NCBI GenBank assembly: GCA_963668175.1
Contig: OY764159.1
Span: 3,904,001-3,968,000, forward strand
DNA: 64,000 bases
Reading direction: 5' to 3'
From: Syntrophales bacterium
Lineage (GTDB): Bacteria > Desulfobacterota > Syntrophia > Syntrophales > PHBD01
Below, piece after piece: positions 1 to 47,805 of this stretch. Position 1 is the stretch's first letter. Each line of letters begins with the position of its first letter. A program made the translations under genes and the position numbers. The notes beneath the pieces were generated by a model. The model made no database searches. It was not told the DNA's origin and saw only the letters and a program-made list of their open reading frames with translations.

Positions 1-2
1 AT

Positions 3-497
3 GACGCCACCCGCCTCAAGGCGATCAGCAAACTGATGATCCGGGAGGGTTTGTTTCACTCGACGAAGGCCCTGTCTCCGGAAGGCGTGTCCGTCATCGA
101 GGTGGAAAGCCCGCCGGACAAGACCAATCTCGTGCGGCTGGACGACGCCTATGGACGCAAGGAAGAACCCTACGAGGGCCTCGATTCGGTCGTACCCATG
201 ACAGATGAATGCATCATGTTTACGGCACCAGAACTTGACCGGCCGCTCGTCTATCAAATTGCAGGCGTTACCATGGTCATCGAACGCCGCAATGATCTTG
301 CGGCATTGCGGACGCGCCCTTCGGGGGAAGTCATCCTGGTCCTTGACGGCGGCCTGGTGAGCAAGAACAATGATCCTATTCTGAGTTCGGGTGACGTGGT
401 CACGATCAGCACATTTTCCTATCTGGCCGACACATTCGCTTCGCCGCAAGGTATGTCGTTCATATCGTTCCGCCGGGAGCAGAATCAAGATGCGTAG
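3..497 (+). CDS. Cupin-domain protein (mannose-6-phosphate isomerase type II C-terminal-like), 5'-truncated by the window edge
   Basis: Frame is open from position 3. FHSTKAL..IEVESPPDKTNLVRLDDAYGR resembles the cupin IEVQ..DIVR.ED.YGR signature. Stop overlaps the next ATG at 490. Confidence 0.55.
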   Translation, partial: DATRLKAISKLMIREGLFHSTKALSPEGVSVIEVESPPDKTNLVRLDDAYGRKEEPYEGLDSVVPMTDECIMFTAPELDRPLVYQIAGVTMVIERRNDLAALRTRPSGEVILVLDGGLVSKNNDPILSSGDVVTISTFSYLADTFASPQGMSFISFRREQNQDA

Positions 498-2457
498 TGT
501 GCCGGCGTCCGGTTCTCCATGGCGCGTAGGACTTGTCCAGATCAACAACAGTTTTGCCGGCGCCTGTTATCTGCCGTATGCCGTAAGTCTTCTGCAGGCC
601 CACTTTCAGCTTCATTCGGGGAAAGCCGGCGCCTTCTCATTCCTCTTGCCGATTTATCGACGAATACCCGTGGATGACGCGATCCGGCACCTGGCCGGGG
701 CCGACATCGTCGCCATCAGCGTTTCGTCCTGGAACTTCAGGGCGTCGCTGGAAATCGCCAGGCGCCATAAGGAAATTCATCCCCAGGCGTTGATCATGCT
801 GGGCGGCCCGCACATCCCCGGCAACGCGGAACCGTTGCTCAGGGCCCATCCGTGGGTCGATCTTGTCTGTCACGGCGAAGGAGAGATCCCGTTTCTCAGG
901 ATATTGGATGCCTGGCCGGAACGCCAATGGGACGACATCCCTTCCATCAGTTATCTCGAAGGGGAGCGATTCGTCAGCCGGCCGGACGAGTCCCGCATCG
1001 CCGAACTGGATTCCGTGCCGTCGCCGTACCTCGCGGGCACATTCGAGCCGTTGCTGAGGGAAGATCGAGGGCACCAGTGGCTGGCCCTTTGGGAGACCAA
1101 TCGCGGCTGTCCCTTCTCCTGCTCTTACTGCGATTGGGGGGCCGCGACGCGATCGAAGTTGTATTGTTTCGGTCTGGAGCGGCTCAAGAAGGAAATCGGC
1201 TGGTTCGCCGAGCACCGGATCGAGTTTATCTTCTGTTGCGACGCCAATTTCGGCATCCTGCCGCGGGACCTCGACATTGTCAAAGCCGTGGCCGACGCGA
1301 AGAAGACGTCCGGATTTCCCCAGGCCCTGTCGGTGCAGAACACCAAAGACTCGGACCGTTCGTTCGAAATTCAGAAAGCCCTGGCCGAAGCGGGACTCAG
1401 CAAGGGGGTCAACCTGGCCATGCAGTCGATGCATCCGGAAACACTGGCCCTGATCGGCCGCCGCAACATCTCCCCGGACGTCTTTCAGGACCTGCAACAG
1501 CGGTACAACCGGGACCGGATCGAGACGTTCACGGACATCATCATCGGGCTGCCCGGGGAAACCTACACTTCCTTCACCTCGGGGGTCGAAAAGATCATCG
1601 GCAACGGCCAGCACAACAGGATCCAGTTCATCAATCTTTCCATTCTGCCCAATGCCCCCATGGCCGACCCGGCGTACCGGCAGATGCATGGCCTCATCTC
1701 GGCGGTATCGAAGATCATCAACATTCACGGAGCCCCTGCCGACTACGGCGACGGCATTTCCGAGACGCAGGAACTGGTGGTGGGAAGCAACGCCATGCCG
1801 AAGGAGGATTGGCGGCGGGCCAGGGTCTTCGCCTGGATGACATCCCTTCTCTACTTCGATAAAATCCTCCAGATTCCGATGATGCTCCTGAAGGCCGAGA
1901 CGGGTATCGATTGCGCCAGACAGATTGAAGCGTTCATGGATCTGCCCGCAGGAAAATTTCCCCTGCTGGAGGAACTGGCCCGGTTCTTCCGGGACGAGGC
2001 GGCGGCCATACAGGAGGGCGCGCCCGAGTTCTTCCATGCCCCCGACCGCTTGGGCATATACTGGCCTCACGACGAATATGCCTATATCCGTCTGAGCACC
2101 GAAGGTAAACTGGAGGCCTTCTACAGAGAGGCCCGCCAGCGGATGGCGGAACTGGCCGTGAGCGAAGGACACCCATGCCCGCCCTGGCTTCCTGATGCCA
2201 TCCGCCTTAACGGTATGTTGCTCAAACAGCCCTTTCACAGAGACGATATCACATTCCGATCCCAGTACGATCTCCTAGGCACCTGCGACACAATCCGCCG
2301 CACGGGCGGAGGCCGTCTTATACCGGGACCGGCTTCCTACGTGGTGAACCGTTCCTCCGAGCGATGGCAGGGATGGGAGGAATGGTCGCGCGAAGTCGTC
2401 TGGTACGGCAACAAGCGGGGGGCCTACCTCTATCATTTTTCCCGAGGGGAGCAATAG
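490..2457 (+). CDS. B12-binding-domain radical SAM protein
   Basis: N-terminal YLPY..LGGPH..GEGE B12-binding-like region and ETNRGCPFSCSYC (CxxxCxxC). ATG 490 overlaps the upstream stop, so it is preferred over the ORF-track start at 391. Confidence 0.85.
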   Translation: MRSVPASGSPWRVGLVQINNSFAGACYLPYAVSLLQAHFQLHSGKAGAFSFLLPIYRRIPVDDAIRHLAGADIVAISVSSWNFRASLEIARRHKEIHPQALIMLGGPHIPGNAEPLLRAHPWVDLVCHGEGEIPFLRILDAWPERQWDDIPSISYLEGERFVSRPDESRIAELDSVPSPYLAGTFEPLLREDRGHQWLALWETNRGCPFSCSYCDWGAATRSKLYCFGLERLKKEIGWFAEHRIEFIFCCDANFGILPRDLDIVKAVADAKKTSGFPQALSVQNTKDSDRSFEIQKALAEAGLSKGVNLAMQSMHPETLALIGRRNISPDVFQDLQQRYNRDRIETFTDIIIGLPGETYTSFTSGVEKIIGNGQHNRIQFINLSILPNAPMADPAYRQMHGLISAVSKIINIHGAPADYGDGISETQELVVGSNAMPKEDWRRARVFAWMTSLLYFDKILQIPMMLLKAETGIDCARQIEAFMDLPAGKFPLLEELARFFRDEAAAIQEGAPEFFHAPDRLGIYWPHDEYAYIRLSTEGKLEAFYREARQRMAELAVSEGHPCPPWLPDAIRLNGMLLKQPFHRDDITFRSQYDLLGTCDTIRRTGGGRLIPGPASYVVNRSSERWQGWEEWSREVVWYGNKRGAYLYHFSRGEQ

Positions 2458-2461
2458 ACGC

Positions 2462-3424
2462 ATGCGCTGTCGCCCGCTGGGCAGAACGGGTATCCAAGTC
2501 TCGGAGATAGGTTTCGGTTCCTGGGGCATCGGAGGGATCGTGCAGGATGCTACCGCCTACGGCCTTACCGACGACCGCATCTCGAAGCGGGCATTGGAGG
2601 CGGCCTTCGCTGCAGGCGTGACGTTTTACGACACGGCGGCCCTGTATGGCTACGGACACAGCGAGGAACTGATCGGCGAAACGCTCCATAAAGTGCGGGA
2701 CCGTATCGTGATTTCCACCAAAGCGGGTTACGTCAATTTCGGCGGGGCTCAGGATTTCTCGCCCAAGTATCTGCGTAAATCGCTGGAAGGAAGCCTGAGA
2801 CGCCTGCAGACCGATTATGTCGACGTCTTCCAGCTCCACGACCCGCCGATCGATCTTCTGGAGCGGGACGGTTCCATCATGGATGCCATGGAAACTTTGC
2901 GCTACGAAAACAAGATCCGCGTCATCGGCATCTCCACACGATCCCCGGCGGACAGCCTGGTCGCTGTAAACCGCCTGGGATTCCAATCCATCCAGGTCAA
3001 TTTCAACCTGGTGGACCAACGGGCGTTAGAGATAGGCCTGTATCCCGCCTGCCGGGAGCAAGGCGCGGGCATCATCGTCAGGACCCCTTTGTGCTTCGGC
3101 TTCCTGACAGGAAAGTATAGCGCCGGGGACAACTATGACGAAGGGGATCATCGCAGCCGCTGGAAGCCCGAGCAGATCAGTCTATGGGCCGAGGCCAACA
3201 AACTTTTTCAAACGGCATTGACTGATCGGGAGGGACAGAACAACGTGCACGTCGCGCTTCGTTACGTTCTGTCCTTCGAGGACGTTTCCACGACGATACC
3301 CGGCATGCTGACGGAAGAGCATGTCGCCGAAAACACAATGGCAAGCGATATGGGCCCACTGCCCCCCTCCGTCCTTGCCGCATTTGCGGACATTTACCGT
3401 AATCACAGTTTCTTTTGCCGATGA
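2462..3424 (+). CDS. Aldo/keto reductase
   Basis: LGRTGIQVSEIGFGSW, FYDTAALYGYGHSEELIG and SLRRLQTDYVDVFQLH are typical AKR motifs. Confidence 0.9.
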   Translation: MRCRPLGRTGIQVSEIGFGSWGIGGIVQDATAYGLTDDRISKRALEAAFAAGVTFYDTAALYGYGHSEELIGETLHKVRDRIVISTKAGYVNFGGAQDFSPKYLRKSLEGSLRRLQTDYVDVFQLHDPPIDLLERDGSIMDAMETLRYENKIRVIGISTRSPADSLVAVNRLGFQSIQVNFNLVDQRALEIGLYPACREQGAGIIVRTPLCFGFLTGKYSAGDNYDEGDHRSRWKPEQISLWAEANKLFQTALTDREGQNNVHVALRYVLSFEDVSTTIPGMLTEEHVAENTMASDMGPLPPSVLAAFADIYRNHSFFCR

Positions 3425-3487
3425 CGGACACAGGCAGGGACATCACCCGGGAAGGCCAAAAGAAATCGAATCAAAGGGAGAAAGTCC

Positions 3488-4978
3488 ATGAAATCTCTTT
3501 TACTGATTAACCCGCCCAATTCCGACCAGATACGCTCCCCCGGCTACTATTTGCTGCCCCTCGCTCTCCTGTATCTGGCCGGCTCTGCGAGGGAAGTGGC
3601 AGATGTTACGATCCTGGACCTGAATGTTGCAAAAAGTAAATTCTTCCGTTCGAAGAAGGAAGGGACATTTTCCTATACGGGCGCAGTGGAGGAGGAAATA
3701 GTCAGGCTCAGACCCGATTTCGTCGGCATAACCTGCCTTTTTTCGGCCCAGTTCGATATGATGATGCAAATCGCCGACGCCGTCAAGAGGGCCAACCCAT
3801 CCTCGACCGTCATCCTCGGGGGCATGCATCCGACAATTTTCCCGCATGAAATCCTGTCCAACTGTCCCAGCGTCGATGCCGTCGTCATCGGCGAAGGGGA
3901 AATCACTCTGAAGCAAATGCTCTCGCTCGACGGGGATCACTGGAATCGGATCGGCGGGCTTGCCTTCAGAAACAGCAAGAATGAAATCATCATCAACGAA
4001 AAAAAAGATTTCATCGAGGACCTCGACGCACTGGCGCCGGCAGCATACGACCTGTTCAACTTCGAGGACTACATGCTCGATTCCAGCGGATGGTACAACC
4101 CCAAGAAACTGTCCATCGGAACGTCTGCACCGATTCTGACGAGCAGGAGCTGCCCCTTCAAATGCAGTTTCTGCGGGATGAACCTGGTCATGGGAACCCG
4201 TTTCCGGTCGCGAAGCGCCGAGGAAGTCTTCAAGGAAATCGAATATCTCTATTCCGTCCACAACGTCCGATACTTCAACATTATGGACGACAATTTTACC
4301 CTCGATAAGAAGAGGATCAAGAAAATCTGCCGGTACATCATCGACAACAAGCTCGATATCTCCTTCGATATGCCGAACGGCATCATGACGGCGACCCTTG
4401 ACGACGACGTTATCGATGCCCTGGCCGAGGCCGGTTTTGCCTATTGCTTCCTTGCCATTGAGAGCGGTTCTGATTACATAAGAAACACCGTCATGCATAA
4501 ACAGCTTTCAAAGGAAACGATCTTCCGCGTCGTCAATTCTTTCCGGAGACATCCCGAAGTCCACCTGGCCGCCTTTTTCCTTATGGGCATGCCGGAGGAA
4601 ACAAAAGAAACGCTGGACGAAACCTACGACCTGATAGAAGCCCTGGATATCGATTCATTCAAAATGTCCGTGGCGACACCGTTTCCCGGAACCAAGCTTT
4701 TCAATCAGTGTCTGAAGGACGACCTGTTTCTCATAGACAAGAAAAAACTCGGTTCCCTCTGGCGGGACATCAACTGGTACCAGCGAATTCTCAACGTCGA
4801 CCCGCCTTTTTTCTTCAAGCCCTATGCCGTGGATATTCCGACCCTGGAAGAATATGTCCATAAATTTGAAGCTATCAGGCATCAGAAGCATCTGATCACC
4901 GTAAGCAAAGGAAGGCAGACCCTGAGCGTAACCCAGGCCGTGGCCGACTACCGGCGGAGCAACCCCGGCGCCCCATGA
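3488..4978 (+). CDS. B12-binding-domain radical SAM protein (class B methyltransferase-like)
   Basis: LLINPP..LPLALLYLA, LGGMHPT, GEGE, TSRSCPFKCSFC, DDNF, AIESGS, PFPGT; GGGAG RBS upstream. Confidence 0.9.
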   Translation: MKSLLLINPPNSDQIRSPGYYLLPLALLYLAGSAREVADVTILDLNVAKSKFFRSKKEGTFSYTGAVEEEIVRLRPDFVGITCLFSAQFDMMMQIADAVKRANPSSTVILGGMHPTIFPHEILSNCPSVDAVVIGEGEITLKQMLSLDGDHWNRIGGLAFRNSKNEIIINEKKDFIEDLDALAPAAYDLFNFEDYMLDSSGWYNPKKLSIGTSAPILTSRSCPFKCSFCGMNLVMGTRFRSRSAEEVFKEIEYLYSVHNVRYFNIMDDNFTLDKKRIKKICRYIIDNKLDISFDMPNGIMTATLDDDVIDALAEAGFAYCFLAIESGSDYIRNTVMHKQLSKETIFRVVNSFRRHPEVHLAAFFLMGMPEETKETLDETYDLIEALDIDSFKMSVATPFPGTKLFNQCLKDDLFLIDKKKLGSLWRDINWYQRILNVDPPFFFKPYAVDIPTLEEYVHKFEAIRHQKHLITVSKGRQTLSVTQAVADYRRSNPGAP

Positions 4979-5958
4979 CGATGGAAAAGCAAGACCGAAT
5001 TCAGAACGGCCTAGACCTTTCCTTTCTTCAGGGTAAGCACGTCCTGGTAACCGGCGGTACGGGATTCATCGGACGCGGTTTTGTAGAGGCGCTGCTGAAT
5101 TCCGGGGCCAAAATCAGGATCACGGTCCACGAACAACTCTCTCCGTTCGACAGGGACCGCATTGAAACTGTCTACGCCGATCTCACGGAGCAGGAGGATT
5201 GTATCGCTGCATGCAGCGGCATGGATGTCGTCATTCATGCCGCGGGCGGTGTAGGGAACGCCGGTAACATCCGGTCCAATCTGGTTGCGTCCCTGGCGGA
5301 TAACCTCGTCATGACCGTGAGGATGCTGGAGGCCGCGTCGGAACGCTGCGAAAAAATTCTTATCTTCTCAAGCGGTACGACCGGATACCCTCCTTACGAT
5401 TACCCCGTTCGCGAAGAGGACATGTGGACGGGTCCGCCGGCACCGGTGTACTTCGGATACGGCTGGATGCGGCGCTATTTCGAACTTTTCGGCGAATATG
5501 TCGGTTCCGTTTCCCCTCTTGAAGTCATGGTTTGCAGACCTACGGCTGTGTACGGCCGCCACGACCGTTCCGGCCACATCGTCCCGGCACTTGTCCATCG
5601 CGCTTTGTCCGGCGAAAACCCGCTGACGGTCTGGGGAAGCGGCAAGGAAGAGCGCGATTTCCTCCATGTTTCCGACCTGGTGCGCGGCTGTCTGTTGCTT
5701 CTCCGCCGCGACACGTCCGTAGGACCGATCAATATCGGATACGGAAAAACAACCACGGTTGCCGACGTGGCCCGGATCGTCATGGAGGCCGCCGGACGGC
5801 CGGAAACGGATATCGTCTTCGACGAAACCAAGCCGACCACGATACCGGTCAGAGCGGTCGATTGCTCCAAAGCAGGAGAACTGCTGGGATTCGCACCGTC
5901 AATCGACCTGGTTGCCGGCATCCGCGACCTCGTCCAGTGGTACAAAACACAGATCTAA
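4975..5958 (+). CDS. NAD(P)-dependent epimerase/reductase (extended SDR, GDP-fucose synthase-like)
   Basis: VTGGTGFIG Rossmann motif, HAAGGVG, VWGSGKEERDFLHVSD; ATGA overlap with the upstream gene. Confidence 0.85.
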   Translation: MTMEKQDRIQNGLDLSFLQGKHVLVTGGTGFIGRGFVEALLNSGAKIRITVHEQLSPFDRDRIETVYADLTEQEDCIAACSGMDVVIHAAGGVGNAGNIRSNLVASLADNLVMTVRMLEAASERCEKILIFSSGTTGYPPYDYPVREEDMWTGPPAPVYFGYGWMRRYFELFGEYVGSVSPLEVMVCRPTAVYGRHDRSGHIVPALVHRALSGENPLTVWGSGKEERDFLHVSDLVRGCLLLLRRDTSVGPINIGYGKTTTVADVARIVMEAAGRPETDIVFDETKPTTIPVRAVDCSKAGELLGFAPSIDLVAGIRDLVQWYKTQI

Positions 5959-5966
5959 GGCAACCC

Positions 5967-7175
5967 ATGACTTTCAGGATTCCCTTCGGCACGATTACCA
6001 TCACGGAAACGGCCAGGCGGCTCATTAGCGAAGCGCTCGATGCAGAACGCATCTCCAGTGGCAGCCTCGTCCGGCGGTTTGAGGACAAATTCGCCGAGCT
6101 TACAGGCGTCCGCGAAGCCGTGGCGCTGAGCAGCGGTACGGATGCGGATATTCTGGCACTCGCAGTCCTGCACGATTTCGGTGCGACACGGGGCGATGAA
6201 GTCATCGTTCCCGCCCTCTCGTTCGTTTCGACCGGCGGGGCGGTCATCCATGCCGGATTCAGACCCGTGTTCGTGGATATTGAACGAGAAACGCTCAACA
6301 TCGACCCGCAGCGCATCGAAGAGGCCATTACGCCCAGAACCAGGGCCATCATGCCCGTGCACCTGATGGGTAAGCCTGCGGACATGGACGCGATCAGTGC
6401 CATCGCCCGGCGTCACAACCTGGTCGTCGTGGAGGACGCGGCCGAGGCCCACGGAGCCCGATACCGCGGCAAACAGGCCGGATGCCTCGCCGATATGGGT
6501 GCTTTCAGTACGTATGTCGCCCACATCATCACGACCGGCGAAGGCGGCGTCGTAACGACCGACCGGGAAGACTATGCCGCCGTCCTTCGTTCACTGCGCT
6601 CGCACGGACGCGCCTGCGACTGCAAGCAATGCACACTCAATATCGCTTCCGCCTACTGTCCGAAGAGATTTTCCGGCGACGGCGGCGAAGACATCCGCTT
6701 TCAATTCGAACGCATCGGATATTCCTGCAAGATGAATGAGCTGGAAGCGGCCATAGGGCTTGGAGCCATGGAACGTTACCAGGAGATTTTAACCAAACGG
6801 CATGAGAATCTGATGCATGTCCTGACGAAATTCGATCGCTTTGCACCCTTCCTGGGGACCATCCGGGAAGAACCGCATGAGACGATCGGCCCCCATGCGA
6901 TACCGATGATCGTCGGCGAGGAAGCCCCTTTCTCCCGCGAGGAGTTCACTGCGTACCTTGAACAAAACGGCATAGAAACCCGGACGCTCTTCAGCTCCAT
7001 CCCTACCCAATGCAAGGGATTTTCTTTTCTGGGCTACCGCCCGGGCGACTTTCCGCAGGCGGAATACATCGGACGCAAGGCGATCCATATCGGCTGCCAC
7101 CAGGCGCTTGGTCTTTCCGATATGGACTACGTCCTTGACGTCATTGCGGCGTTTTTACGCTCGAAGAATCTTTGA
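5967..7175 (+). CDS. DegT/DnrJ-family PLP/PMP enzyme, E1 (RfbH/AscC)-like 3-dehydrase
   Basis: SSGTDA, GDEVIVPALSF, EDAAEAHGA. STYVAHIITTGEGG has His at the usual Lys position, followed by a GRACDCKQC..YC Cys cluster. ATG 5967 lies just after the upstream stop. Confidence 0.85.
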   Translation: MTFRIPFGTITITETARRLISEALDAERISSGSLVRRFEDKFAELTGVREAVALSSGTDADILALAVLHDFGATRGDEVIVPALSFVSTGGAVIHAGFRPVFVDIERETLNIDPQRIEEAITPRTRAIMPVHLMGKPADMDAISAIARRHNLVVVEDAAEAHGARYRGKQAGCLADMGAFSTYVAHIITTGEGGVVTTDREDYAAVLRSLRSHGRACDCKQCTLNIASAYCPKRFSGDGGEDIRFQFERIGYSCKMNELEAAIGLGAMERYQEILTKRHENLMHVLTKFDRFAPFLGTIREEPHETIGPHAIPMIVGEEAPFSREEFTAYLEQNGIETRTLFSSIPTQCKGFSFLGYRPGDFPQAEYIGRKAIHIGCHQALGLSDMDYVLDVIAAFLRSKNL

Positions 7176-8440: not shown

Positions 8441-8463
8441 AACCGAGCTTCGCGGGATTGCCA

Positions 8464-9789: not shown

Positions 9790-9791
9790 GT

Positions 9792-10619: not shown

Positions 10620-10645
10620 ATCGTTAAGGCTGCAAACAAAAGACG

Positions 10646-15894: not shown

Positions 15895-15902
15895 GGAGCA
15901 TT

Positions 15903-35394: not shown

Positions 35395-35456
35395 CGCTGT
35401 CGTTTCCTGTTTTCCTATATCCGGGTTGTCCAAACTGCGGCAGGACGTCCCTAATA

Positions 35457-39690: not shown

Positions 39691-41193
39691 CTATCGGCCC
39701 CGAGACGGCACGGCCAGCTCCGCGGCCACCTCCCCCATTACCGTATCCCACGCTCCAGGCTCTCCCTGACGAAACAACCGCATCGTCGGATACCACGGAC
39801 TGTCTCCCCGTCCCAGCATCCAGCGCCAATCCGGGGCATACGGCAGAAGCGTCCAGACAGCCTTCCCCATCGCTCCCGCCAAATGAACCACCGCCGTGTC
39901 CACAGATATCACCAAATCCAGGTTCCCGACCAGCCCCGCCGTATCGCTGAAATCATTCAACTCGCCCGTGTAATCCAATAACGCCATCCCCTCAGGTGCC
40001 TCCTTCGACTCCCCGGACGCCTCACCCTTCTGCAAACTGTAAAAACGCACTCCCGACACTTTCCCCAACGGACCATACTGCAAAAGCTTCAGCGTCCGGT
40101 AGCGATCCTTCTTGTGCGTCGGTCGACCTGCCCAGGACAATCCTACCTTCAGCCCAGGGCCGTCTCCGGTCAACCGCTCACGCCAATAGCGCAAAGACTC
40201 TTCCGTCCCCCTGATATACGGCACCTCCCCCGGTATCGTCGCAAGTTCCGTCCCGAACATCCCAGGCAAACTCATTATCGGGCATCGATAATCGTACGGC
40301 GGAAGAACCTCGCCTCGCCCATATACCGCCGATATCCCCTCAACCCCCGACAGCAGACGGACCAGCTCCTTCTGGCACTCCACCAACACCTCCGCCCCGC
40401 GATACGACAACTGCCGCGCGTAACGGATGAACTGGATCGTATCCCCGAAGCCCTGCTCCGTATAAACCAGTATCCGCTTCCCTGCTAAATCCTCACCTCG
40501 CCACTCCTGACCGCCGAGATCACGCTTCGCGAAAATCTCCCGCATCTCCCGGCGCCACTCATACTCCTTCCAGCCTTCCGCAAAATTACCCGTCAAAAGC
40601 AGCGCCAAAGACAAATTCCAGTGCGCCTCCGCAAAACCCGGCTTTAATCCGATAGCACGACGGAAATAGGGTATGGCCGCAGCGTCTTCATTATAAGCAT
40701 CCTGCAGGGCATTCCCGTAATTGTAATGGGCTTCGGCCATATTAGGGTCTATGGCGGCGGCCTTTTCATAATGCGCAAGGGCCTCTTGGAACAGCTTCTT
40801 CTCCTTGAACGCGTTGCCCAGGTTATAGAAAGCCCCGGCATCGTCTCCTTTTCCCGCAATGATCTCCCGGAAGCACGAGATGGCTTCGTCGATCCGGCCT
40901 TCCGCGAGGAGAGAATTCCCGAGATTGCCGTATATATCGGCATTTCCTGGCTTATAGATAAGCGCTTTTCGCGAATAGGCGACGGCTTCAGCAAAATTCT
41001 TCTTCTGATAAAAGAGCGCCCCCAAAAGCTGCAAGGCATCGGCGTGCTCCGGTTCATCCTCGAGAATAGCCTTGTAGGCTTCTTCGGCCTGATCGAGTCT
41101 GCCGTCCAGGTGATAGGCAAGGGCCTTTCGCATGCCGTCGAGACCGCCATGCCGGCTGGAGACATTCGCATATTTGGGATAATCATCGTCCAT
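39691..41193 (-). CDS. TPR + GT9-like glycosyltransferase (copy 4)
   Basis: About five TPRs, EQGFGDTIQF, DLVISVDT, DWRW..SPWYP. Confidence 0.85.
   Translation of the reverse strand: MDDDYPKYANVSSRHGGLDGMRKALAYHLDGRLDQAEEAYKAILEDEPEHADALQLLGALFYQKKNFAEAVAYSRKALIYKPGNADIYGNLGNSLLAEGRIDEAISCFREIIAGKGDDAGAFYNLGNAFKEKKLFQEALAHYEKAAAIDPNMAEAHYNYGNALQDAYNEDAAAIPYFRRAIGLKPGFAEAHWNLSLALLLTGNFAEGWKEYEWRREMREIFAKRDLGGQEWRGEDLAGKRILVYTEQGFGDTIQFIRYARQLSYRGAEVLVECQKELVRLLSGVEGISAVYGRGEVLPPYDYRCPIMSLPGMFGTELATIPGEVPYIRGTEESLRYWRERLTGDGPGLKVGLSWAGRPTHKKDRYRTLKLLQYGPLGKVSGVRFYSLQKGEASGESKEAPEGMALLDYTGELNDFSDTAGLVGNLDLVISVDTAVVHLAGAMGKAVWTLLPYAPDWRWMLGRGDSPWYPTMRLFRQGEPGAWDTVMGEVAAELAVPSRGR
39713..40662. repeat. 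GT-module repeat, 950 bp, near-identical to 45941..46890; its first 800 bp also match 43567..44366
   Basis: Direct comparison at offsets 6228 and 3854; the ORF track shows the same shadow ORFs at these offsets. Confidence 0.95.
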
Positions 41194-43549
41194 GCGTCAC
41201 CTTGACGAGTTCCCGGCGGATGCGTTCAACGACATCCCCCCACTGCCCCTGTTCGGTCTGGCGGAACAACCTCATCGTCGGATACCAGGGGCTGTCGTCC
41301 CGATCCAGCATCCAGCGCCAGTCCGGCGAACGCATCAACATCGTCCAGACGGGCTTGCCCATTGCACCCGCCAGATGCGCTGTGGCCGTGTCGACGGAGA
41401 TCGTCAAATCGAGGTTCTCGATCAGGGCGGCCGTATCGGCAAAATCCCGGATATCTTCGGTGTAATCGACGATCGTCATCCCGGCCGGCGCATCTTTTAT
41501 CTGGCCGGACGCCTCTCCTTTCTGAACGCTGTAGAACGTGACGCCCCGTATCGAAAAAAGGGGCAGAAAATCCTTCAGCAGGCATGATTTGATGGCGGGA
41601 TGCGTACCGCCCCAGACCAGCCCCGCCCTTACCGTACCGTCGCCTCCGGCAAGTCTTTCCCGCCATGTTTTTGCTAAATCGGCATCCGCCTTGATATAGG
41701 GGACATCGACGGGCAACGTATCCAGAGACGTATCGAACATCATAGGAAGCGACAAGAGGGGGATATGGACGTCATAATGCGGCAGGGCCTCTCCGCGCAA
41801 AACGATTTTTCGCACGCCCTTAACCCCTCTGAAAATCGTCTGCAGTTCCTTTTGACAATGGACGATCGCATCCGCGCCCAGATCGGCAACCATGCGGACA
41901 TACCGGACAAAATGAATCGCGTCCCCGAAACCCTGTTCCGTATAGATCAGGATAGTCTTGCCTTTTATATCGGAACCGTCCCAAAGCGGTTTCTCATAGT
42001 CGTAAACCAGGGCGACATCCGGTAGTTTCTTTCTCCATTCGTATTTCTTCCATCCTTCCCGGAAATTTCCTGCAAAAAGATAGTTGAGGGACATATTGAA
42101 ATGGGCCTCGGCGTAATCGGGCTTCATGGCCACCGACGTTTGAAAGGACCGGAGGGCCTCGTCAAACAACCCCAAAAATTGGAGGACATTCCCGAGATTG
42201 GTGTAGGCCTCCGCCTTCCCCGGCTGAAGTTCGATCACCTTCTCGAAGTGCGCCTTCGCCTCCTCGAACCGCTCCTGCTCCTGGAGGGCCAGGCCCATGT
42301 TGTTATAGGCCTCCGCGTACCCGGGGTTGAGCTCTATCGCCTTCCGGTAATACCCCACCGCCTCCTCAAAGCACCGCTTCTCCTTGTACGCATTCCCAAG
42401 ATTGTAATAGCCCTTCTCCCCCTCCGGGTCGAGGCGCACAACCTCACGGTAGCACAAAACCGCGTCGTCCAGACGGCCCTGCTCGCGAAACACGTTCCCC
42501 AAATTGAACAGCGCCCCCACGTACTCCCCGTCCAGCTTCAACACGCCCTGGTAATACGCCACCGCCTCATCCAAAATCCCCTTGTCACGCAACGCATTCG
42601 CCAAATTGTACTGCGCCAAAACCACTCGACCGTCTACCCGAACCGCCTCACGATACTGCTCGATCGCCTCATCCAACATCCCGCGCGACTGCAACAGCAA
42701 TCCCAGATTGTTCCGGGCCTCCACAAACTCCGGCTTCAATGCCACTGCCTTGCGATACAAAAACATCGCTTCATCATTCCGCCCCTGGCTCTGATACGCA
42801 AAACCAAGGTTATGGCATGCCCGCGCATTCCCCGGTTCGCGTCCCAATACCTCCAAAAAACACGAAACGGCCTCCTCGCAGGCACCACGATCCTGCAGCA
42901 ATACACCCAGACCGTTCCAGGCATCCAGGTATCCGCCGTCCAGCGCCAATGCCTTCCGGTATGCAGCCGCAGCCTCATCAAGAAGCCCCTGCTCCCGCAA
43001 TGCAACTCCCAGCTGATACGGCACCACCGCCACACCCGGAAGCAATGCCTCCGCACGCCGGTAACTCGCAACCGCCTCCGCAAGAAGACCCAGCTCCCGC
43101 AGTGCATTCCCCAGATTATAATGCGCCTCGCCGTATCCTTCGTTCAGTTCCAACGCCCGGCGGTAACACGATAACGCCTGCTCAATCCTCCCCGTCTCCT
43201 TCAAGGCGATACCCAGGCTGTTGTATATCTCCGCATTCCCCTCGTCACGGCGTAAGGCCTCCTGATAACAGGATATCGCCTTTTCCAGATGCCCCGAATC
43301 GTAATAGATGTTCCCCAGCGTATGGTACGCTCCCCCGTTCCCGGGAGCGACGGATACAACCCGCTCGAAGTATACGGCTGCCGCTCCGTAGTCCCCCTCC
43401 TGATAGCGTATCCAGCCCAATAGCTCCAAGGCCCGCGTATCGTCCGGGCGCTCCTCTAAAACCGCCCCGTACAGGCGCGCCGCCTCCGTTAACCGTCCGG
43501 ACCGCTGATGCTCCACGGCCTCTTGCATTGTCTCTTCCAGATTCATCAT
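41183..43549 (-). CDS. Long TPR + GT9-like glycosyltransferase (copy 3, divergent GT domain)
   Basis: About 14 TPRs, nearly identical to those of 43551..45923; distinct GT domain EQGFGDAIHF..DLTISVDT..DWRW. Confidence 0.85.
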   Translation of the reverse strand: MMNLEETMQEAVEHQRSGRLTEAARLYGAVLEERPDDTRALELLGWIRYQEGDYGAAAVYFERVVSVAPGNGGAYHTLGNIYYDSGHLEKAISCYQEALRRDEGNAEIYNSLGIALKETGRIEQALSCYRRALELNEGYGEAHYNLGNALRELGLLAEAVASYRRAEALLPGVAVVPYQLGVALREQGLLDEAAAAYRKALALDGGYLDAWNGLGVLLQDRGACEEAVSCFLEVLGREPGNARACHNLGFAYQSQGRNDEAMFLYRKAVALKPEFVEARNNLGLLLQSRGMLDEAIEQYREAVRVDGRVVLAQYNLANALRDKGILDEAVAYYQGVLKLDGEYVGALFNLGNVFREQGRLDDAVLCYREVVRLDPEGEKGYYNLGNAYKEKRCFEEAVGYYRKAIELNPGYAEAYNNMGLALQEQERFEEAKAHFEKVIELQPGKAEAYTNLGNVLQFLGLFDEALRSFQTSVAMKPDYAEAHFNMSLNYLFAGNFREGWKKYEWRKKLPDVALVYDYEKPLWDGSDIKGKTILIYTEQGFGDAIHFVRYVRMVADLGADAIVHCQKELQTIFRGVKGVRKIVLRGEALPHYDVHIPLLSLPMMFDTSLDTLPVDVPYIKADADLAKTWRERLAGGDGTVRAGLVWGGTHPAIKSCLLKDFLPLFSIRGVTFYSVQKGEASGQIKDAPAGMTIVDYTEDIRDFADTAALIENLDLTISVDTATAHLAGAMGKPVWTMLMRSPDWRWMLDRDDSPWYPTMRLFRQTEQGQWGDVVERIRRELVKVTHGR

Positions 43550-44366
43550 CCTAGCTCGGATAGGCAGCCAGCTCCGCCGCCACCTCCCCCATTACCGTAT
43601 CCCACGCTCCAGGCTCTCCCTGACGAAACAACCGCATCGTCGGATACCACGGACTGTCTCCCCGTCCCAGCATCCAGCGCCAATCCGGAGCATACGGCAG
43701 AAGCGTCCAGACAGCCTTCCCCATCGCTCCCGCCAAATGAACCACCGCCGTGTCCACAGATATCACCAAATCCAGGTTCCCGACCAGCCCCGCCGTATCG
43801 CTGAAATCATTCAACTCGCCCGTGTAATCCAATAACGCCATCCCCTCAGGTGCCTCCTTCGACTCCCCGGACGCCTCACCCTTCTGCAAACTGTAAAAAC
43901 GCACTCCCGACACTTTCCCCAACGGACCATACTGCAAAAGCTTCAGCGTCCGGTACACATCCTTCTTGTGCGTCGGTCGACCTGCCCAGGACAATCCTAC
44001 CTTCAGCCCGGGTCCCTCTCCGGTCAACCGCTCACGCCAATAGCGCAAAGACTCTTCCGTCCCCCTGATATACGGCACCTCCCCCGGTATCGTCGCAAGC
44101 TCCGTCCCGAACATCCCTGGCAAACTCATTATCGGGCATCGATAATCGTACGGCGGAAGAACCTCGCCTCGCCCATATACCGCCGATATCCCCTCAACCC
44201 CCGACAGCAGACGGACCAGCTCCTTCTGGCACTCCACCAACACCTCCGCCCCGAGATACGACAACTGCCGCGCATAGCGGATGAACTGGATCGTATCCCC
44301 GAAGCCCTGCTCCGTATAAACCAGTATCCGCTTCCCTGCTAAATCCTCACCTCGCCACTCCTGACC
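42308..44366. repeat. Direct repeat unit 1 (2059 bp; TPR module + gene junction + GT module)
   Basis: Near-identical to 44682..46740 (offset 2374), with about a dozen substitutions seen by eye. Confidence 0.95.
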
Positions 44367-45923
44367 ATCTTGGACATACGTCCCGGCGACGTCGGCGACC
44401 TTTCTCCGCCATTCGTATTCCTTCCACCCTCTCTGTAAATCGCCCGAGAGCAGAACGGTCAGGGACATGTTGAAATGGGCCTCGGCCAGGTCGGGCTGTA
44501 TTTCCACGGCCCGCTCAAAGGATTTGACGGCTTCATCGAAACGTCCCATGGATTGGAGGACATTCCCGAGATTGGTGTAGGCCTCCGCCTTCCCCGGATG
44601 GCGTTCGATCACCTTCTCGAACTGCGCCTTCGCCTCCTCGAATGCTTCACGTTCCTGAAAGAGCAGTCCCAACTCGTGGCGGGCCTCCGCGTACCCGGGG
44701 TTGAGCTCTATCGCCTTCCGGTAATAGCCCACCGCCTCCTCAAAGCACCGCTTCTCCTTGTACGCATTCCCAAGATTGTAATAGCCCTTCTCCCCCTCCG
44801 GGTCGAGGCGCACAACCTCACGATAACACAAAACCGCATCGTCCAAACGGCCCTGCTCGCGAAACACGTTCCCCAAATTGAACAGCGCCCCCACGTACTC
44901 CCCGTCCAGCTTCAACACGCCCTGGTAATACGCCACCGCCTCATCCAAAATCCCCTTGTCACGCAACGCATTCGCCAAATTGTACTGCGCCAAAACCACT
45001 CGACCGTCTACCCGAACCGCCTCACGATACTGCTCGATCGCCTCATCCAACATCCCGCGCGACTGCAACAGCAATCCCAGGTTGTTCCGGGCCTCCACAA
45101 ACTCCGGCTTCAATGCCACTGCCTTGCGATACAACAACATCGCTTCATCATTCCGCCCCTGGCTCTGATACGCAAAACCAAGGTTATGGCATGCCCGCGC
45201 ATTCCCCGGTTCGCGTCTCAATACCTCCAAAAAACACGAAACGGCCTCCTCGCAGGCACCACGATCCTGCAGCAATACACCCAGACCGTTCCAGGCATCC
45301 AGGTATCCGCCGTCCAGCGCCAATGCCTTCCGGTATGCAGCCGCAGCCTCATCAAGAAGCCCCTGCTCCCGCAATGCAACTCCCAGCTGATACGGCACCA
45401 CCGCCACACCCGGAAGCAATGCCTCCGCACGCCGGTAACTCGCAACCGCCTCCGCAAGAAGACCCAGCTCCCGCAGCGCATTCCCCAGATTATAATGCGC
45501 CTCGCCGTATCCTTCGTTCAGTTCCAACGCCCGGCGGTAACACGATAACGCCTGCTCAATCCTCCCCGTCTCCTTCAAGGCGATACCCAGGCTGTTGTAT
45601 ATCTCCGCATTCCCCTCGTCACAGCGCAAGGCCTCCTGATAACAGGATATCGCCTTTTCCAGATGCCCCGAATCGTAATAGATGTTCCCCAGCGTATGGT
45701 ACGCTCCCCCGTTCCCGGGAGCGACGGATACAACCCGCTCGAAGTATGCGGCTGCCGCTCCGTAGTCCCCCTCCTGATAGCGTATCCAGCCCAATAGCTC
45801 CAAGGCCCGCGTATCGTCCGGGCGCTCCTCTAAAACCGCCCCGTACAGGCGCGCCGCCTCCGTTAACCGTCCGGACCGCTGATGCTCCACGGCCTCTTGC
45901 ATTGTCTCTTCCAGATTCATCAT
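43551..45923 (-). CDS. Long TPR + GT9-like glycosyltransferase (copy 2)
   Basis: TPR module shared with 41183..43549; GT module shared with 45925..47805. Confidence 0.85.
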   Translation of the reverse strand: MMNLEETMQEAVEHQRSGRLTEAARLYGAVLEERPDDTRALELLGWIRYQEGDYGAAAAYFERVVSVAPGNGGAYHTLGNIYYDSGHLEKAISCYQEALRCDEGNAEIYNSLGIALKETGRIEQALSCYRRALELNEGYGEAHYNLGNALRELGLLAEAVASYRRAEALLPGVAVVPYQLGVALREQGLLDEAAAAYRKALALDGGYLDAWNGLGVLLQDRGACEEAVSCFLEVLRREPGNARACHNLGFAYQSQGRNDEAMLLYRKAVALKPEFVEARNNLGLLLQSRGMLDEAIEQYREAVRVDGRVVLAQYNLANALRDKGILDEAVAYYQGVLKLDGEYVGALFNLGNVFREQGRLDDAVLCYREVVRLDPEGEKGYYNLGNAYKEKRCFEEAVGYYRKAIELNPGYAEARHELGLLFQEREAFEEAKAQFEKVIERHPGKAEAYTNLGNVLQSMGRFDEAVKSFERAVEIQPDLAEAHFNMSLTVLLSGDLQRGWKEYEWRRKVADVAGTYVQDGQEWRGEDLAGKRILVYTEQGFGDTIQFIRYARQLSYLGAEVLVECQKELVRLLSGVEGISAVYGRGEVLPPYDYRCPIMSLPGMFGTELATIPGEVPYIRGTEESLRYWRERLTGEGPGLKVGLSWAGRPTHKKDVYRTLKLLQYGPLGKVSGVRFYSLQKGEASGESKEAPEGMALLDYTGELNDFSDTAGLVGNLDLVISVDTAVVHLAGAMGKAVWTLLPYAPDWRWMLGRGDSPWYPTMRLFRQGEPGAWDTVMGEVAAELAAYPS

Positions 45924-46740
45924 CCTAGCTCGGATAGGCAGCCAGCTCCGCCGCCACCTCCCCCATTACCGTATCCCACGCTCCAGGCTCTCCCTGACGA
46001 AACAACCGCATCGTCGGATACCACGGACTGTCTCCCCGTCCCAGCATCCAGCGCCAATCCGGAGCATACGGCAGAAGCGTCCAGACAGCCTTCCCCATCG
46101 CTCCCGCCAAATGAACCACCGCCGTGTCCACAGATATCACCAAATCCAGGTTCCCGACCAGCCCCGCCGTATCGCTGAAATCATTCAACTCGCCCGTGTA
46201 ATCCAATAACGCCATCCCCTCAGGTGCCTCCTTCGACTCCCCGGACGCCTCACCCTTCTGCAAACTGTAAAAACGCACTCCCGACACTTTCCCCAACGGA
46301 CCATACTGCAAAAGCTTCAGCGTCCGGTACACATCCTTCTTGTGCGTCGGTCGACCTGCCCAGGACAATCCTACCTTCAGCCCGGGTCCCTCTCCGGTCA
46401 ACCGCTCACGCCAATAGCGCAAAGACTCTTCCGTCCCCCTGATATACGGCACCTCCCCCGGTATCGTCGCAAGCTCCGTCCCGAACATCCCTGGCAAACT
46501 CATTATCGGGCATCGATAATCGTACGGCGGAAGAACCTCGCCTCGCCCATATACCGCCGATATCCCCTCAACCCCCGACAGCAGACGGACCAGCTCCTTC
46601 TGGCACTCCACCAACACCTCCGCCCCGAGATACGACAACTGCCGCGCATAACGGATGAACTGGATCGTATCCCCGAAGCCCTGCTCCGTATAAACCAGTA
46701 TCCGCTTCCCTGCTAAATCCTCACCTCGCCACTCCTGACC
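44682..46740. repeat. Direct repeat unit 2 (2059 bp)
   Basis: Near-identical to 42308..44366. Confidence 0.95.
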
Positions 46741-47805
46741 GCCGAGATCACGCTTCGCGAAAATCTCCCGCATCTCCCGGCGCCACTCATACTCCTTCCA
46801 GCCTTCCGCAAAATTACCCGTCAAAAGCAGCGCCAAAGACAAATTCCAGTGCGCCTCCGCAAAACCCGGCTTTAATCCGATAGCACGACGATAGAAACGG
46901 ATGGCTTCCGGGCAATCCAATGTATCGTACAGGGACACGCCCATGTTGTTAAGGGCATCGGTATGGTCCGGATTGACCTCCAGGGCCCGGCCGGTATATC
47001 GGATCGCCCCTTCCAAATCTTGGCTGCCGTAAGCCATAACACCCAGGCTGTAATAGGCATCGGCGATAGAGGGATCAATCCGTAAAGCCTGCCAGTAGGC
47101 CGCGGCGGCGTTTTCAACATCGCTTTCCTCCCGGAAGACATTCCCCAGATTGTTATAAGCGGCGGCGTAGCAGGGGCTGATCTTGAGGGCCGTTTCGTAG
47201 CAGATCCTGGCTTCGGCAAGTTCTCCCCGTTCCTGCAGAAGCGTTCCCGTATTATTGAAGGCCTCTGCAAAATCGGGCTTTAACTCGATGGCCTTGCGGA
47301 AACAGGTGAGGGCTTCGTCCGGCCGGTTTTTCTCTTTCATGACGTTCCCCAGGTTGTTGTAGGCCTCCGGAAACGCCGCCCGGCATCCTATGGCCTTTTG
47401 ATAGCATGAAAGAGCCGCATCGAGATCACCGACCTCCTGAAAAACGACGCCTAAATTATAATGAAGCTCGCAATCGGTCGGATCGAGAGACAACCCCCGT
47501 CGATAGCTGGCAATGGCGGCATCTGGCCGGCCTGCACCTTTGTAGCTGTTCCCCAGATTCTTGTAGGCATCCACCCGTTTCGGGTCGAGGTTGATTGCGG
47601 CCTCTGTATTCACGATGGCCCTGTCGTACCGTCCTGTTTCATAATCCAGAAGCCCCATCAGGTACAGGACATCGATGTGATAAGGTTCGGTCTCCAGAAT
47701 GCTTCGGTACAGCATCTCGGCTTCCGCAAGCCTTCCCGCCCGGTGATGCTCCAAGGCGTTCACAATCATATCATCCGTTACAGCATTAGCCATTTTACCG
47801 TTCAC
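45925..47805 (-). CDS. TPR + GT9-like glycosyltransferase (copy 1, first gene after flaF)
   Basis: About nine TPRs plus the shared GT module; start GTG 47805 or ATG 47793. Confidence 0.85.
   Translation of the reverse strand: MNGKMANAVTDDMIVNALEHHRAGRLAEAEMLYRSILETEPYHIDVLYLMGLLDYETGRYDRAIVNTEAAINLDPKRVDAYKNLGNSYKGAGRPDAAIASYRRGLSLDPTDCELHYNLGVVFQEVGDLDAALSCYQKAIGCRAAFPEAYNNLGNVMKEKNRPDEALTCFRKAIELKPDFAEAFNNTGTLLQERGELAEARICYETALKISPCYAAAYNNLGNVFREESDVENAAAAYWQALRIDPSIADAYYSLGVMAYGSQDLEGAIRYTGRALEVNPDHTDALNNMGVSLYDTLDCPEAIRFYRRAIGLKPGFAEAHWNLSLALLLTGNFAEGWKEYEWRREMREIFAKRDLGGQEWRGEDLAGKRILVYTEQGFGDTIQFIRYARQLSYLGAEVLVECQKELVRLLSGVEGISAVYGRGEVLPPYDYRCPIMSLPGMFGTELATIPGEVPYIRGTEESLRYWRERLTGEGPGLKVGLSWAGRPTHKKDVYRTLKLLQYGPLGKVSGVRFYSLQKGEASGESKEAPEGMALLDYTGELNDFSDTAGLVGNLDLVISVDTAVVHLAGAMGKAVWTLLPYAPDWRWMLGRGDSPWYPTMRLFRQGEPGAWDTVMGEVAAELAAYPS

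Follow-up and report, generated by a model that had tools for sequence, protein, structure and literature searches.

A 55,690-bp island of 40 genes in the genome of a Syntrophales bacterium (GenBank assembly GCA_963668175.1, contig OY764159.1) probably serves flagellin O-glycosylation, all of it carried out in the cytoplasm. Most of it lies in the stretch of DNA that we analyzed, called the window here, which is 64,000 nucleotides long and covers positions 3,904,001-3,968,000 of a single 4,567,304-bp contig. (Coordinates are window positions unless they are given as genome positions.) Five island proteins are homologous to FlmG, a flagellin glycosyltransferase of Caulobacter, and a cytoplasmic pathway aimed at flagellin is therefore supported. 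Each carries a tetratricopeptide repeat (TPR) array followed by a domain with the GT-B glycosyltransferase fold. Their genes, and the flagellar genes that four of them follow in tandem, are laid out as follows.

50585..50611, - strand: sigma-28-type promoter-like site upstream of flagellin, TAAA-N15-ACCGATAA
49599..50432, - strand: flagellin, 277 amino acids, 25.6% Ser+Thr; the only flagellin gene in the genome
49014..49511, - strand: conserved 165-amino-acid low-complexity open reading frame between flagellin and flbT
48435..48878, - strand: flbT (Pfam)
48113..48496, - strand: flaF (Pfam)
45925..47805, - strand: FlmG-like protein adjoining flaF (E 3e-36 to FlmG; GT9 fold)
43551..45923, - strand: chimeric FlmG-like protein
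41183..43549, - strand: FlmG-like protein with a long TPR array and its own type of transferase domain; orthologue of the third copy in a relative, G002
39691..41193, - strand: FlmG-like protein with a short TPR array; transferase-domain DNA 98.7% identical to that of 45925-47805
26377..28260, - strand: fifth FlmG-like protein, apart from the others; TPR and GT9-like GT-B (E 1e-39 to Caulobacter FlmG)

Caulobacter FlmG consists of a TPR part (residues 1-313) and a GT-B part (residues 309-596) (PMC7591256; bioRxiv 10.1101/2022.03.25.485807). As described in PMC7591256, the TPR part binds flagellins and the transferase part is required for glycosylation. The donor is pseudaminic acid (Pse) for Caulobacter FlmG and legionaminic acid (Leg) for Brevundimonas FlmG, it is set by the transferase domain, and the only FlmG enzymes characterized in these two sources transfer one or the other of these sugars (PMC7591256; bioRxiv 10.1101/2022.03.25.485807). 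We located flmG in a Caulobacter vibrioides genome (L008:8230-10020) with the gene-specific part of a primer listed in the supplement of PMC7591256. In BLASTP comparisons, Caulobacter FlmG matched 26377-28260 with an E value of 1e-39 (27% identity over 511 residues, covering both domains) and 45925-47805 with an E value of 3e-36. The Caulobacter locus reads flmH-flmG-orf-flaF-flagellins, which is the same neighborhood as in the island. The island proteins are FlmG homologues that form a sister clade, and not FlmG orthologues.

All-against-all BLASTP showed that the five proteins, which range from 500 to 790 amino acids with TPR arrays of varying length, share a C-terminal domain, about 300 residues long, that has no Pfam match. 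The Pfam GT9 model, PF01075, scored 19.1 bits on this domain against a cut-off of 22 and matched only residues 225-259, and a sequence search of PDB chains returned only a chance match to a ribosomal protein (E 0.41). When 8,000 candidates from a large protein collection were scored, 7,327 proteins from many phyla matched at E <= 0.001. TPR and a precomputed PF01075 match are present in most of the 120 homologues that were listed. An AlphaFold model of the C-terminal domain of 45925-47805 had a pLDDT of 94.4. The best Foldseek match in the PDB was a GT9 protein, 3tov (E 1.7e-8, TMq 0.59), followed by WaaC, WaaF, and the protein heptosyltransferase TibC; 3tov, 2h1h, 1psw, and 4rap topped the ranking with E values of 1.7e-8 to 4e-6 and TMq of 0.53-0.61. 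In 30 homologues, 63 alignment columns show conservation of at least 90%, and all five paralogues keep them, with four conservative changes in 41183-43549.

The island proteins resemble two known groups. The FlmG enzymes of Caulobacter crescentus and Brevundimonas subvibrioides have the same soluble build (N-terminal TPR and C-terminal GT-B of about 290 residues) and the GT9 enzymes WaaC, WaaF, and TibC (2h1h, 1psw, and 4rap) are the best fold matches and share the D-T...H-L-A-G-A motif. TibC also glycosylates protein in the cytoplasm. However, GT9 enzymes lack TPR arrays, and the PF01075 score here is under the cut-off. As in Caulobacter, the genes lie beside flaF and flagellin, but here there are five paralogues for one flagellin, whereas Caulobacter has one FlmG for six flagellins. 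A predicted complex between the TPR part of 45925-47805 (residues 1-335) and the flagellin gave an ipSAE of 0.00 in two runs made without controls. We also observed that many homologues of 45925-47805 of about 1,000 amino acids hold the TPR plus GT9-like unit twice per protein, as a duplicated consensus. Two more TPR-GT9-like genes lie outside the island, at genome positions 1,709,546-1,710,454 (- strand) and 2,288,290-2,289,207 (+ strand); these open reading frames encode 607 and 622 amino acids, with transferase-domain identities of 47-48%.

The rest of the island and its surroundings fit a route that does not use a lipid carrier. Within the window, no Pfam match was found to wzx, wzy, an ABC exporter, an initiating lipid-carrier transferase, or the NeuB family that makes Pse and Leg, as the original prediction, made from the window sequence, had claimed. 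A hydropathy scan of 31 island and 8 extension proteins found none with more than one marginal hydrophobic stretch, whereas a Wzx-like protein of the same genome, used as a control, had 20. Across the whole genome, Bac_transf was found only at 4,536,019, Wzx-like proteins at 4,124,016, 4,271,728, and 4,551,639 (with a fourth match below the cut-off), and Wzy_C at 4,549,070 and 1,244,597. Of these flippase, polymerase, and initiating-transferase genes, the nearest lies 172 kb from the island end. Sugar-synthesis and transferase genes thus form one run with flagellin, without lipid-carrier or export genes, which is the arrangement that marks a flagellin glycosylation island. The proposed cytoplasmic, lipid-carrier-independent route to flagellin gains support from the FlmG homology, the TPR arrays, the lack of membrane proteins, and the distance to the export genes.

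We scanned 52 open reading frames of the window against Pfam and 34 against NCBIfam. Two blocks of genes converge, one on the + strand (391-26270) and one on the - strand (47805 down to 26377). The predicted count of 32 genes corresponds to 31 complete genes and a cupin gene represented by its 3' end, and flagellin, flbT, and flaF were recovered by Pfam where they had been placed. However, the island does not begin at window position 1, and the proposed length of about 48 kb is too short. Reading 20 kb to the left of the window, we found nine more + strand genes, including the cupin gene that crosses into it. The + strand block starts at genome position 3,896,116, right after uvrA and 7,885 bases before window position 1. 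Farther left are uvrA, two surA-like genes, and mfd, all housekeeping genes. Because these lie upstream, and no wzx, wzy, or wzm-wzt genes do, export genes on that side do not mark the + strand block as a lipopolysaccharide or capsule locus. No promoter or terminator consensus was seen at the convergent junction (26000-26700).

The FlmG-like genes are a mosaic. Over their last 800-950 bases, 39691-41193, 43551-45923, and 45925-47805 share 98.4-99.9% identity. The middle one of these, 43551-45923, is a chimera. Its first 1,200 bases are 97-100% identical to 41183-43549, and the bases from about 1595 to its end are 99-100% identical to 45925-47805. We compared these genes with those of G002, a genome from a sister genus of the same family, whose five transferase domains share 48-53% identity among themselves. 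One G002 domain groups with 41183-43549 and another with 26377-28260 (support 96/98 and 95/98). The two genera thus separated after the five paralogues had arisen, and the sequences indicate that, in the genome studied here, three different TPR arrays later came to carry copies of a single transferase domain. A donor-specificity swap between transferase domains was built by hand with Caulobacter FlmG, whereas the shared domain and the chimera of the island are natural. The tandem order comes from the single-contig assembly; short-read contigs (X1 and X5) break inside the repeats, with no piece spanning them. Between 40000 and 48000, the GC skew on the + strand is -0.17 to -0.31 over the tandem TPR genes, which probably reflects a G-rich coding strand of the repeats.

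Part of this arrangement is kept in relatives. FlbT was found in 12 of 40 relatives, and we read 3.7-60 kb around it in all 12, five of them on contigs of 6 kb or less. In G002, whose flagellin is 81% identical, the order is flagellin-orfX-flbT-flaF, four tandem FlmG-like genes, homologues of five - strand genes (38010-39458 down to 33499-34650), and a fifth FlmG-like gene. Next come a short-chain dehydrogenase/reductase (SDR) gene, a GT-B gene, and a B12 radical S-adenosylmethionine (SAM) gene, and then, on the other strand, homologues of 25197-26270, 22512-25166, and 20925-21419. The 60 kb read in G002 held no homologue of 391-18677, the left extension, or 28288-33502. A metagenome contig (L028) has FlmG-like genes, the cassette of 30455-33502 and two SDR genes, and five other homologues beside flagellin-flbT. 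All three loci contain a B12 radical-SAM gene. Among 301 sampled genomes of the class, which span 24 families of a single order, the transferase domain was matched at E <= 1e-15 in 17 genomes. The genome studied here has seven copies (five in the island), G002 has five, two genomes have two, and the rest have one.

The flagellin itself is less telling. It had been described as small and rich in Thr and Ser, and at 277 amino acids with 25.6% Ser+Thr it is, but it is not special among its relatives. Twelve related flagellins have 14-27% Ser+Thr, including those without such neighbors. We therefore rejected Ser/Thr richness as a marker of glycosylation, because flagellins without FlmG neighbors are equally rich. 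The only flagellin-type genes in the genome are this flagellin and flgL. The open reading frame at 49014-49511 matched no Pfam or NCBIfam family and only unnamed clusters in the ESM Atlas; G002 has a homologue, 38% identical, in the same place. Beyond flagellin lie flgL, flgK, flgN, flgI, flgH, flgA, flgG, flgF, a fliK-like gene, fliL, and a sigma factor gene. The window has two sigma-28-type sites (50585-50611 and 54975-55002), a number reached in 4 of 100 shuffles. The second (54975-55002, - strand), TAAAGTTA-N-GCCGATAA, is upstream of the flgN region. A scan for the sigma-54 consensus gave one sigma-54-like match, at 59660, which is within chance.

The remaining island genes are listed below, from the left extension through the + strand block to the rest of the - strand block. 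GT1, GT2, and GT8 are glycosyltransferase families, NDP is nucleoside diphosphate, ThDP is thiamine diphosphate, and PMP is pyridoxamine phosphate.

Left extension, + strand: gmd-like 4,6-dehydratase
Left extension, + strand: fcl, GDP-L-fucose-synthase-like reductase (459 bits, cut-off 500)
Left extension, + strand: nucleotidyl (NTP) transferase, mannose-1-phosphate guanylyltransferase/HddC-like (HddC far below cut-off)
Left extension, + strand: HddA-like GHMP kinase (far below cut-off)
Left extension, + strand: fifth radical-SAM enzyme, B12 type
Left extension, + strand: PfpI/DJ-1 protein
Left extension, + strand: ThDP E1 alpha/beta pair, split in two genes
1..497, + strand: cupin, 227 amino acids, 3' end in the window (weak match to the PMI end of GMP_PMI, E 9e-6)
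490..2457, + strand: B12-binding radical-SAM enzyme of the KedN5-like C-methyltransferase subfamily (NF033712, 274 bits, cut-off 700; CPFSCSYC); the longest open reading frame starts at 391, and the ATG at 490 overlaps the cupin stop
2462..3424, + strand: aldo-keto reductase, candidate sugar ketoreductase (PF00248, E 2e-53)
3488..4978, + strand: B12-binding radical-SAM enzyme (Pfam, NCBIfam, CxxxCxxC)
4975..5958, + strand: SDR (best NCBIfam match GDP-L-fucose synthase-like, far below cut-off)
5955..7175, + strand: ColD/E1-type PMP-dependent NDP-4-keto-6-deoxyhexose 3-dehydratase (His for the Schiff-base Lys)
7172..8440, + strand: radical-SAM enzyme lacking a B12 domain (resembles BlsE decarboxylase and MoaA weakly; CxxxCxxC)
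8458..9789, + strand: NDP-sugar 6-dehydrogenase (TIGR03026, 330 bits, above cut-off)
9729..10619, + strand: class-I SAM methyltransferase (Pfam)
10646..12517, + strand: fusion of GT2, weak TPR, and Methyltransf_24 (CmcI-like) (Pfam)
12589..15894, + strand: 1,101-amino-acid fusion of TPR, domain X (Pfam-less GT-A), GT-B (Glyco_trans_1_2), and class-I methyltransferase
15903..16577, + strand: small methyltransferase-like protein (PF13489, 31.8 bits)
16574..17572, + strand: SDR, NDP-hexose 4,6-dehydratase type (Pfam, NCBIfam)
17469..18677, + strand: DegT-family sugar aminotransferase, Lys retained (Pfam, NCBIfam, alignment)
18434..20863, + strand: weak GT8-like N terminus, then GT2 and TPR; true start probably near 18680
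20925..21419, + strand: TPR-only protein, 164 amino acids (65% identical homologue in the G002 island)
21581..22492, + strand: GT2 glycosyltransferase (Pfam)
22512..25166, + strand: 884-amino-acid protein with two GT2 domains and TPR (Pfam, two stretches)
25197..26270, + strand: domain X (GT-A-fold glycosyltransferase-like) with C-terminal TPR (model, fold search)
28288..29376, - strand: SDR of a recurrent radical-SAM, SDR, SDR cassette
29373..30431, - strand: SDR, second of that cassette
30455..33502, - strand: 1,015-amino-acid fusion of weak TPR, GT2, and B12 radical-SAM (best HpnJ, TIGR03471, 266 bits, cut-off 577.6)
33499..34650, - strand: GT1-type glycosyltransferase (Pfam)
34687..35460, - strand: class-I methyltransferase (Pfam)
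35457..36986, - strand: GT-B (DUF3880 and Glyco_trans_1_2) with TPR (Pfam)
36973..38013, - strand: GT-B (Glyco_trans_1_2) (Pfam)
38010..39458, - strand: fusion of GT2 and class-I methyltransferase (Pfam)

The predicted total of about 19 glycosyltransferase domains was fair. Eighteen are supported (seven GT2, four GT1-type GT-B, five FlmG/GT9-like, and two Pfam-less GT-A), and there is one further weak GT8-like match, below the cut-off, at the N terminus of 18434-20863 (E 0.002). The two Pfam-less domains, which we call domain X, are residues 1-272 of 25197-26270 and 118-458 of 12589-15894, and they are 35% identical in BLASTP. (Domain X spans 25197-26012 and 12940-13962 of the window, about 290 residues.) Its family comprises 709 proteins at E <= 1e-5, all named "hypothetical" and without a Pfam domain, from Chloroflexota, cyanobacteria, and Armatimonadota, among others. 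The model of 25197-26270 (pLDDT 95.1) has a GT-A fold. Its best Foldseek matches, with E values of about 1e-6, were heparosan synthase, the chondroitin polymerase K4CP, the fucosyltransferase WrtF, TarP, and SpsA. A second search, independent of Foldseek, gave a Z score of 15.9 to K4CP (2z86; root mean square deviation 3.2 over 207 residues), and only GT-A enzymes were at the top. Invariant residues include Y91, N93, D95, H212, and H215, in Y-x-N-x-D and H-x-x-H patterns. Fold comparison of the model therefore supports domain X as a GT-A-fold glycosyltransferase-like family.

Many of these transferases are joined to other modules. TPR was matched at E <= 1e-3 in 13 of the 31 island proteins, in 10 of them above the Pfam cut-off. 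NCBIfam also returned MamA matches, but these are TPR repeats, and we dropped a magnetosome identity. Three proteins fuse a transferase to a methyltransferase (10646-12517, 12589-15894, and 38010-39458). The GT2-B12-radical-SAM build of 30455-33502 recurs in about 65 generically named protein clusters, some of which add GT1 or methyltransferase domains; the clusters come from Nitrospirota, Brocadia, Armatimonadota, Phycisphaerae, and other groups. Its closest metagenome relatives are 87% and 75% identical. In 13-14 of 79 metagenome loci, homologues of its radical-SAM part adjoin homologues of both SDRs (29373-30431 and 28288-29376), mostly with no flagellar genes in view.

The tailoring genes suggest an unusual glycan. 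The 4 SDRs, 1 aldo-keto reductase, and 1 NDP-sugar dehydrogenase predicted in the window were all borne out by Pfam and NCBIfam. Both proteins predicted as DegT enzymes do belong to that family, but one of them, 5955-7175, is a 3-dehydratase type and not an aminotransferase. It matches E1 (3bcx, E 2.4e-53) and ColD (2gms, E 6e-49, and 3gr9) over its full length, although it does not reach the cut-off of the curated RfbH family (NF011936, 253 bits, cut-off 423). Within HIITTGEGG, it has His at the position of the Schiff-base Lys of perosamine synthetase and of the paralogue 17469-18677. This substitution is a signature of PMP-dependent 3-dehydratases. Therefore, a 3,6-dideoxy sugar is supported, and with it the prediction of a deoxygenated glycan.

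All four radical-SAM proteins in the window have CxxxCxxC, and three bind B12 (the one without is 7172-8440), as predicted; with the left extension there are five, four of them of the B12 type. Six class-I methyltransferase domains were confirmed by Pfam, in 9729-10619, 15903-16577, and 34687-35460 and at the C termini of 10646-12517, 12589-15894, and 38010-39458. The claim of a methylated glycan fits the six class-I domains and the four B12 radical-SAM proteins, but its basis is family membership only. From family matches, the B12 radical-SAM enzymes are expected to be C-methyltransferases, although apart from the KedN5-like one their matches are mixed. GenK and GenD1 are B12 radical-SAM enzymes of gentamicin C-methylation. 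The island enzymes have a B12-binding domain and a radical-SAM core with CxxxCxxC in common with KedN5, HpnJ, and GenK/GenD1. However, their scores are far under the cut-offs (274 versus 700 for KedN5 and 266 versus 577.6 for HpnJ), and the HpnJ-like domain is fused to a GT2.

The activating enzymes of the left extension, HddA-like and HddC-like, score 139 bits against a cut-off of 600 and 147 bits against 300. ThDP pairs of the type found there have been proposed to add a two-carbon branch to the avilamycin and paulomycin octoses, and YerE adds such a branch for yersiniose, according to PMC4753412. Because the gmd-like and fcl-like enzymes, the 3-dehydratase, the split ThDP E1 pair, and the aldo-keto reductase and SDR reductases occur together, a colitose-like or yersiniose-like branched dideoxy sugar is a reasonable guess by analogy, with the ThDP branching step suggested by domain type only. 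The ColD, E1, YerE, and AviB1/AviB2 pathways have in common with the island a 4,6-dehydratase, a His-type PMP 3-dehydratase, an fcl-like reductase, a split ThDP pair, and ketoreductases. No E3-type reductase was identified in the island. Those pathways serve O-antigen or antibiotic synthesis, whereas the context here appears to be protein glycosylation.

From gene content we infer the substrates, the order of the steps, flagellin as the target, and the making of a glycan at all; our confidence in any particular sugar structure is much lower. The + strand operon would serve nucleotide-sugar synthesis and tailoring. A GHMP kinase and a nucleotidyltransferase would activate the sugar, and the 4,6-dehydratases and the ColD/E1-type 3-dehydratase would lead to 3,6-dideoxy-4-keto intermediates. 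The ThDP E1 alpha/beta pair might add a two-carbon branch, as proposed for AviB1/AviB2, and the aldo-keto reductase, SDR reductases, aminotransferase, and 6-dehydrogenase would diversify the sugars. B12 radical-SAM enzymes would methylate unactivated carbons, and class-I methyltransferases would methylate O or N atoms. The five FlmG-type enzymes would then place the first sugars on Ser/Thr of flagellin, with the TPR array holding flagellin and the GT9-like GT-B domain holding the donor. About 13 further soluble transferase domains, many fused to TPR, methyltransferase, or radical-SAM modules, would extend the glycan on the protein, and it would be completed before export through the flagellar type III channel.

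A bolder version of this scheme is tentative, and we consider it doubtful. Several exotic glycans might be carried by one flagellin, each started by a different FlmG-type enzyme whose modules were reshuffled by recent gene conversion. Their sugars would be 3,6-dideoxy, C-branched, and C-methylated by radical-SAM enzymes, and they would partly be made on the protein-bound glycan by fusion enzymes such as 30455-33502. If true, this would be a natural version of the Caulobacter domain swap and the first radical-SAM-tailored protein glycan.

The most serious alternative is that the FlmG-like enzymes attach a Pse/Leg-type acid from elsewhere in the genome, which the other island transferases then extend. 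We think it unlikely, although the donors of the characterized FlmG enzymes described above speak for it. So does the flagellin of Aeromonas hydrophila AH-3, whose heptasaccharide is reported to be linked through a Pse derivative (PMC3958885). A whole-genome search for NeuB gave matches above the cut-off at 4,290,365 and 4,310,954 and a third, weak match at 70,388. The two NeuB genes are about 330 kb from the island, in a locus at genome positions 4,264,000-4,322,000 (L107, L006, and L007) that is at least 58 kb long and entirely on the - strand. It contains the two NeuB genes, five cytidine monophosphate (CMP)-transferase genes, aminotransferases, three asparagine-synthase-like amidotransferases, and an amidase fusion, as well as two B12 radical-SAM enzymes, one SPASM radical-SAM enzyme, three GT2, and a Wzx-like flippase. 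From this content, it is probably a nonulosonate-rich surface polysaccharide locus. By analogy with Caulobacter, whose Pse genes are described as scattered and far from flagellin (PMC7591256), CMP-nonulosonates from this distant locus could reach the FlmG-like enzymes. However, the locus has its own flippase and GT2 enzymes and no TPR or FlmG-like protein, and Maf (PF01973, MptE-like/MAF_flag10) had no match in the whole genome, whose completeness is 100%. The island transferase domains also keep the GT9-type D-T...H motif that is absent from Caulobacter FlmG, and their nearest solved folds are ADP-heptose enzymes. Because the NeuB locus has its own flippase and no FlmG-like gene, and because the island domains differ from FlmG at the GT9 nucleotide-sugar motif, a donor other than a nonulosonate is plausible. 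A glycan unlike Pse and Leg, as in the original prediction, is possible on this evidence.

It is improbable that the island, whole or in part and especially in its + strand block, serves a lipid-linked O-antigen, capsule, or exopolysaccharide and lies beside flagellin by chance. The gmd, fcl, 3-dehydratase, and ThDP genes and the many GT2 and GT1 enzymes do resemble O-antigen and antibiotic-sugar clusters as described in PMC4753412. Sugar genes common to flagellin and lipopolysaccharide are reported in several species (PMC3958885), and this genome has a Wzx/Wzy/Bac_transf locus at 4.536-4.552 Mb. Even so, the island runs for 55.7 kb without an initiating transferase, flippase, polymerase, ABC exporter, or membrane protein. 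Moreover, + strand transferases carry TPR (10646-12517, 12589-15894, 18434-20863, 22512-25166, and 25197-26270), and three + strand genes (20925-21419, 22512-25166, and 25197-26270) travel with FlmG-like genes in G002.

Also improbable is that the TPR transferases form a general cytoplasmic protein O-glycosylation system with flagellin as at most one of several clients, an idea that draws on the four different TPR arrays on tandem FlmG-like genes for one flagellin gene, the two TPR-GT9-like genes elsewhere in the genome, and the very large, taxonomically wide family, but that sits poorly with the position of the FlmG-like genes, directly after flagellin-flbT-flaF in both this genome and G002 and beside flagellin-flbT in L028, and with the fact that the only relatives characterized in the sources cited here act on flagellins.

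Several observations weigh against the reading of the island as a flagellin glycosylation system. A scan of the window found no sigma-28-type site ahead of either island block, and the spacer between flaF and the first FlmG-like gene has no conserved motif between this genome and G002. In the DNA read, FlmG-like genes follow flaF in only one of the 12 relatives with FlbT (G002), with five contigs too short to tell. Caulobacter FlmG departs at many of the 63 conserved columns, including the D-T...H motif kept in the island domains. Its transferase domain is only 23-28% identical to theirs, and it stands on a long separate branch in the tree. The clade of the island proteins numbers more than 7,000 members across many phyla, some of them from groups without an obvious flagellar role. 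The NCBIfam matches of the tailoring enzymes fall below curated cut-offs, except for the NDP-sugar dehydrogenase. Finally, 3,6-dideoxyhexoses and yersiniose are best known from O-antigens, as presented in PMC4753412, and the + strand block could feed another glycoconjugate.

Filament assembly, phage and immune recognition, and surface chemistry are all influenced by flagellin glycans. Most known examples are nonulosonic acids or short oligosaccharides made by islands of 10-20 genes. The flagellin island of Pseudomonas aeruginosa PAK is described as having 14 genes and glycans of up to 11 sugars (PMC3958885). Like known flagellin glycosylation islands, the one described here lies beside flagellin and combines sugar-synthesis and transferase genes, and stepwise building of an oligosaccharide on Ser/Thr in the cytoplasm, predicted here, is common to both. 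However, it is about three times larger (40 genes, with 18-19 glycosyltransferase domains), has five radical-SAM enzymes, and would use initiating enzymes of the FlmG type, not Maf or the Pseudomonas transferases. Such islands, and FlmG-type enzymes from two genera, were already known. What sets this one apart is its size, the five radical-SAM enzymes, the transferase-tailoring fusions, and five FlmG-type paralogues with shuffled modules for one flagellin. Our literature search found no paper on radical-SAM enzymes in a flagellin glycosylation locus and no TPR-heptosyltransferase acting on flagellin besides FlmG.

The island offers a compact set of soluble, putatively protein-directed glycosyltransferases, including the Pfam-less GT-A and the GT2-B12-radical-SAM families. 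The FlmG-like mosaic is a natural experiment on how TPR and transferase modules may set acceptor and donor specificity. The island may also be a source of rare sugars of the branched, deoxy, and C-methyl kinds, which could be read by mass spectrometry of one small protein. Should the glycan prove real, B12 radical-SAM sugar chemistry would be extended from antibiotics and lipids to protein glycosylation.

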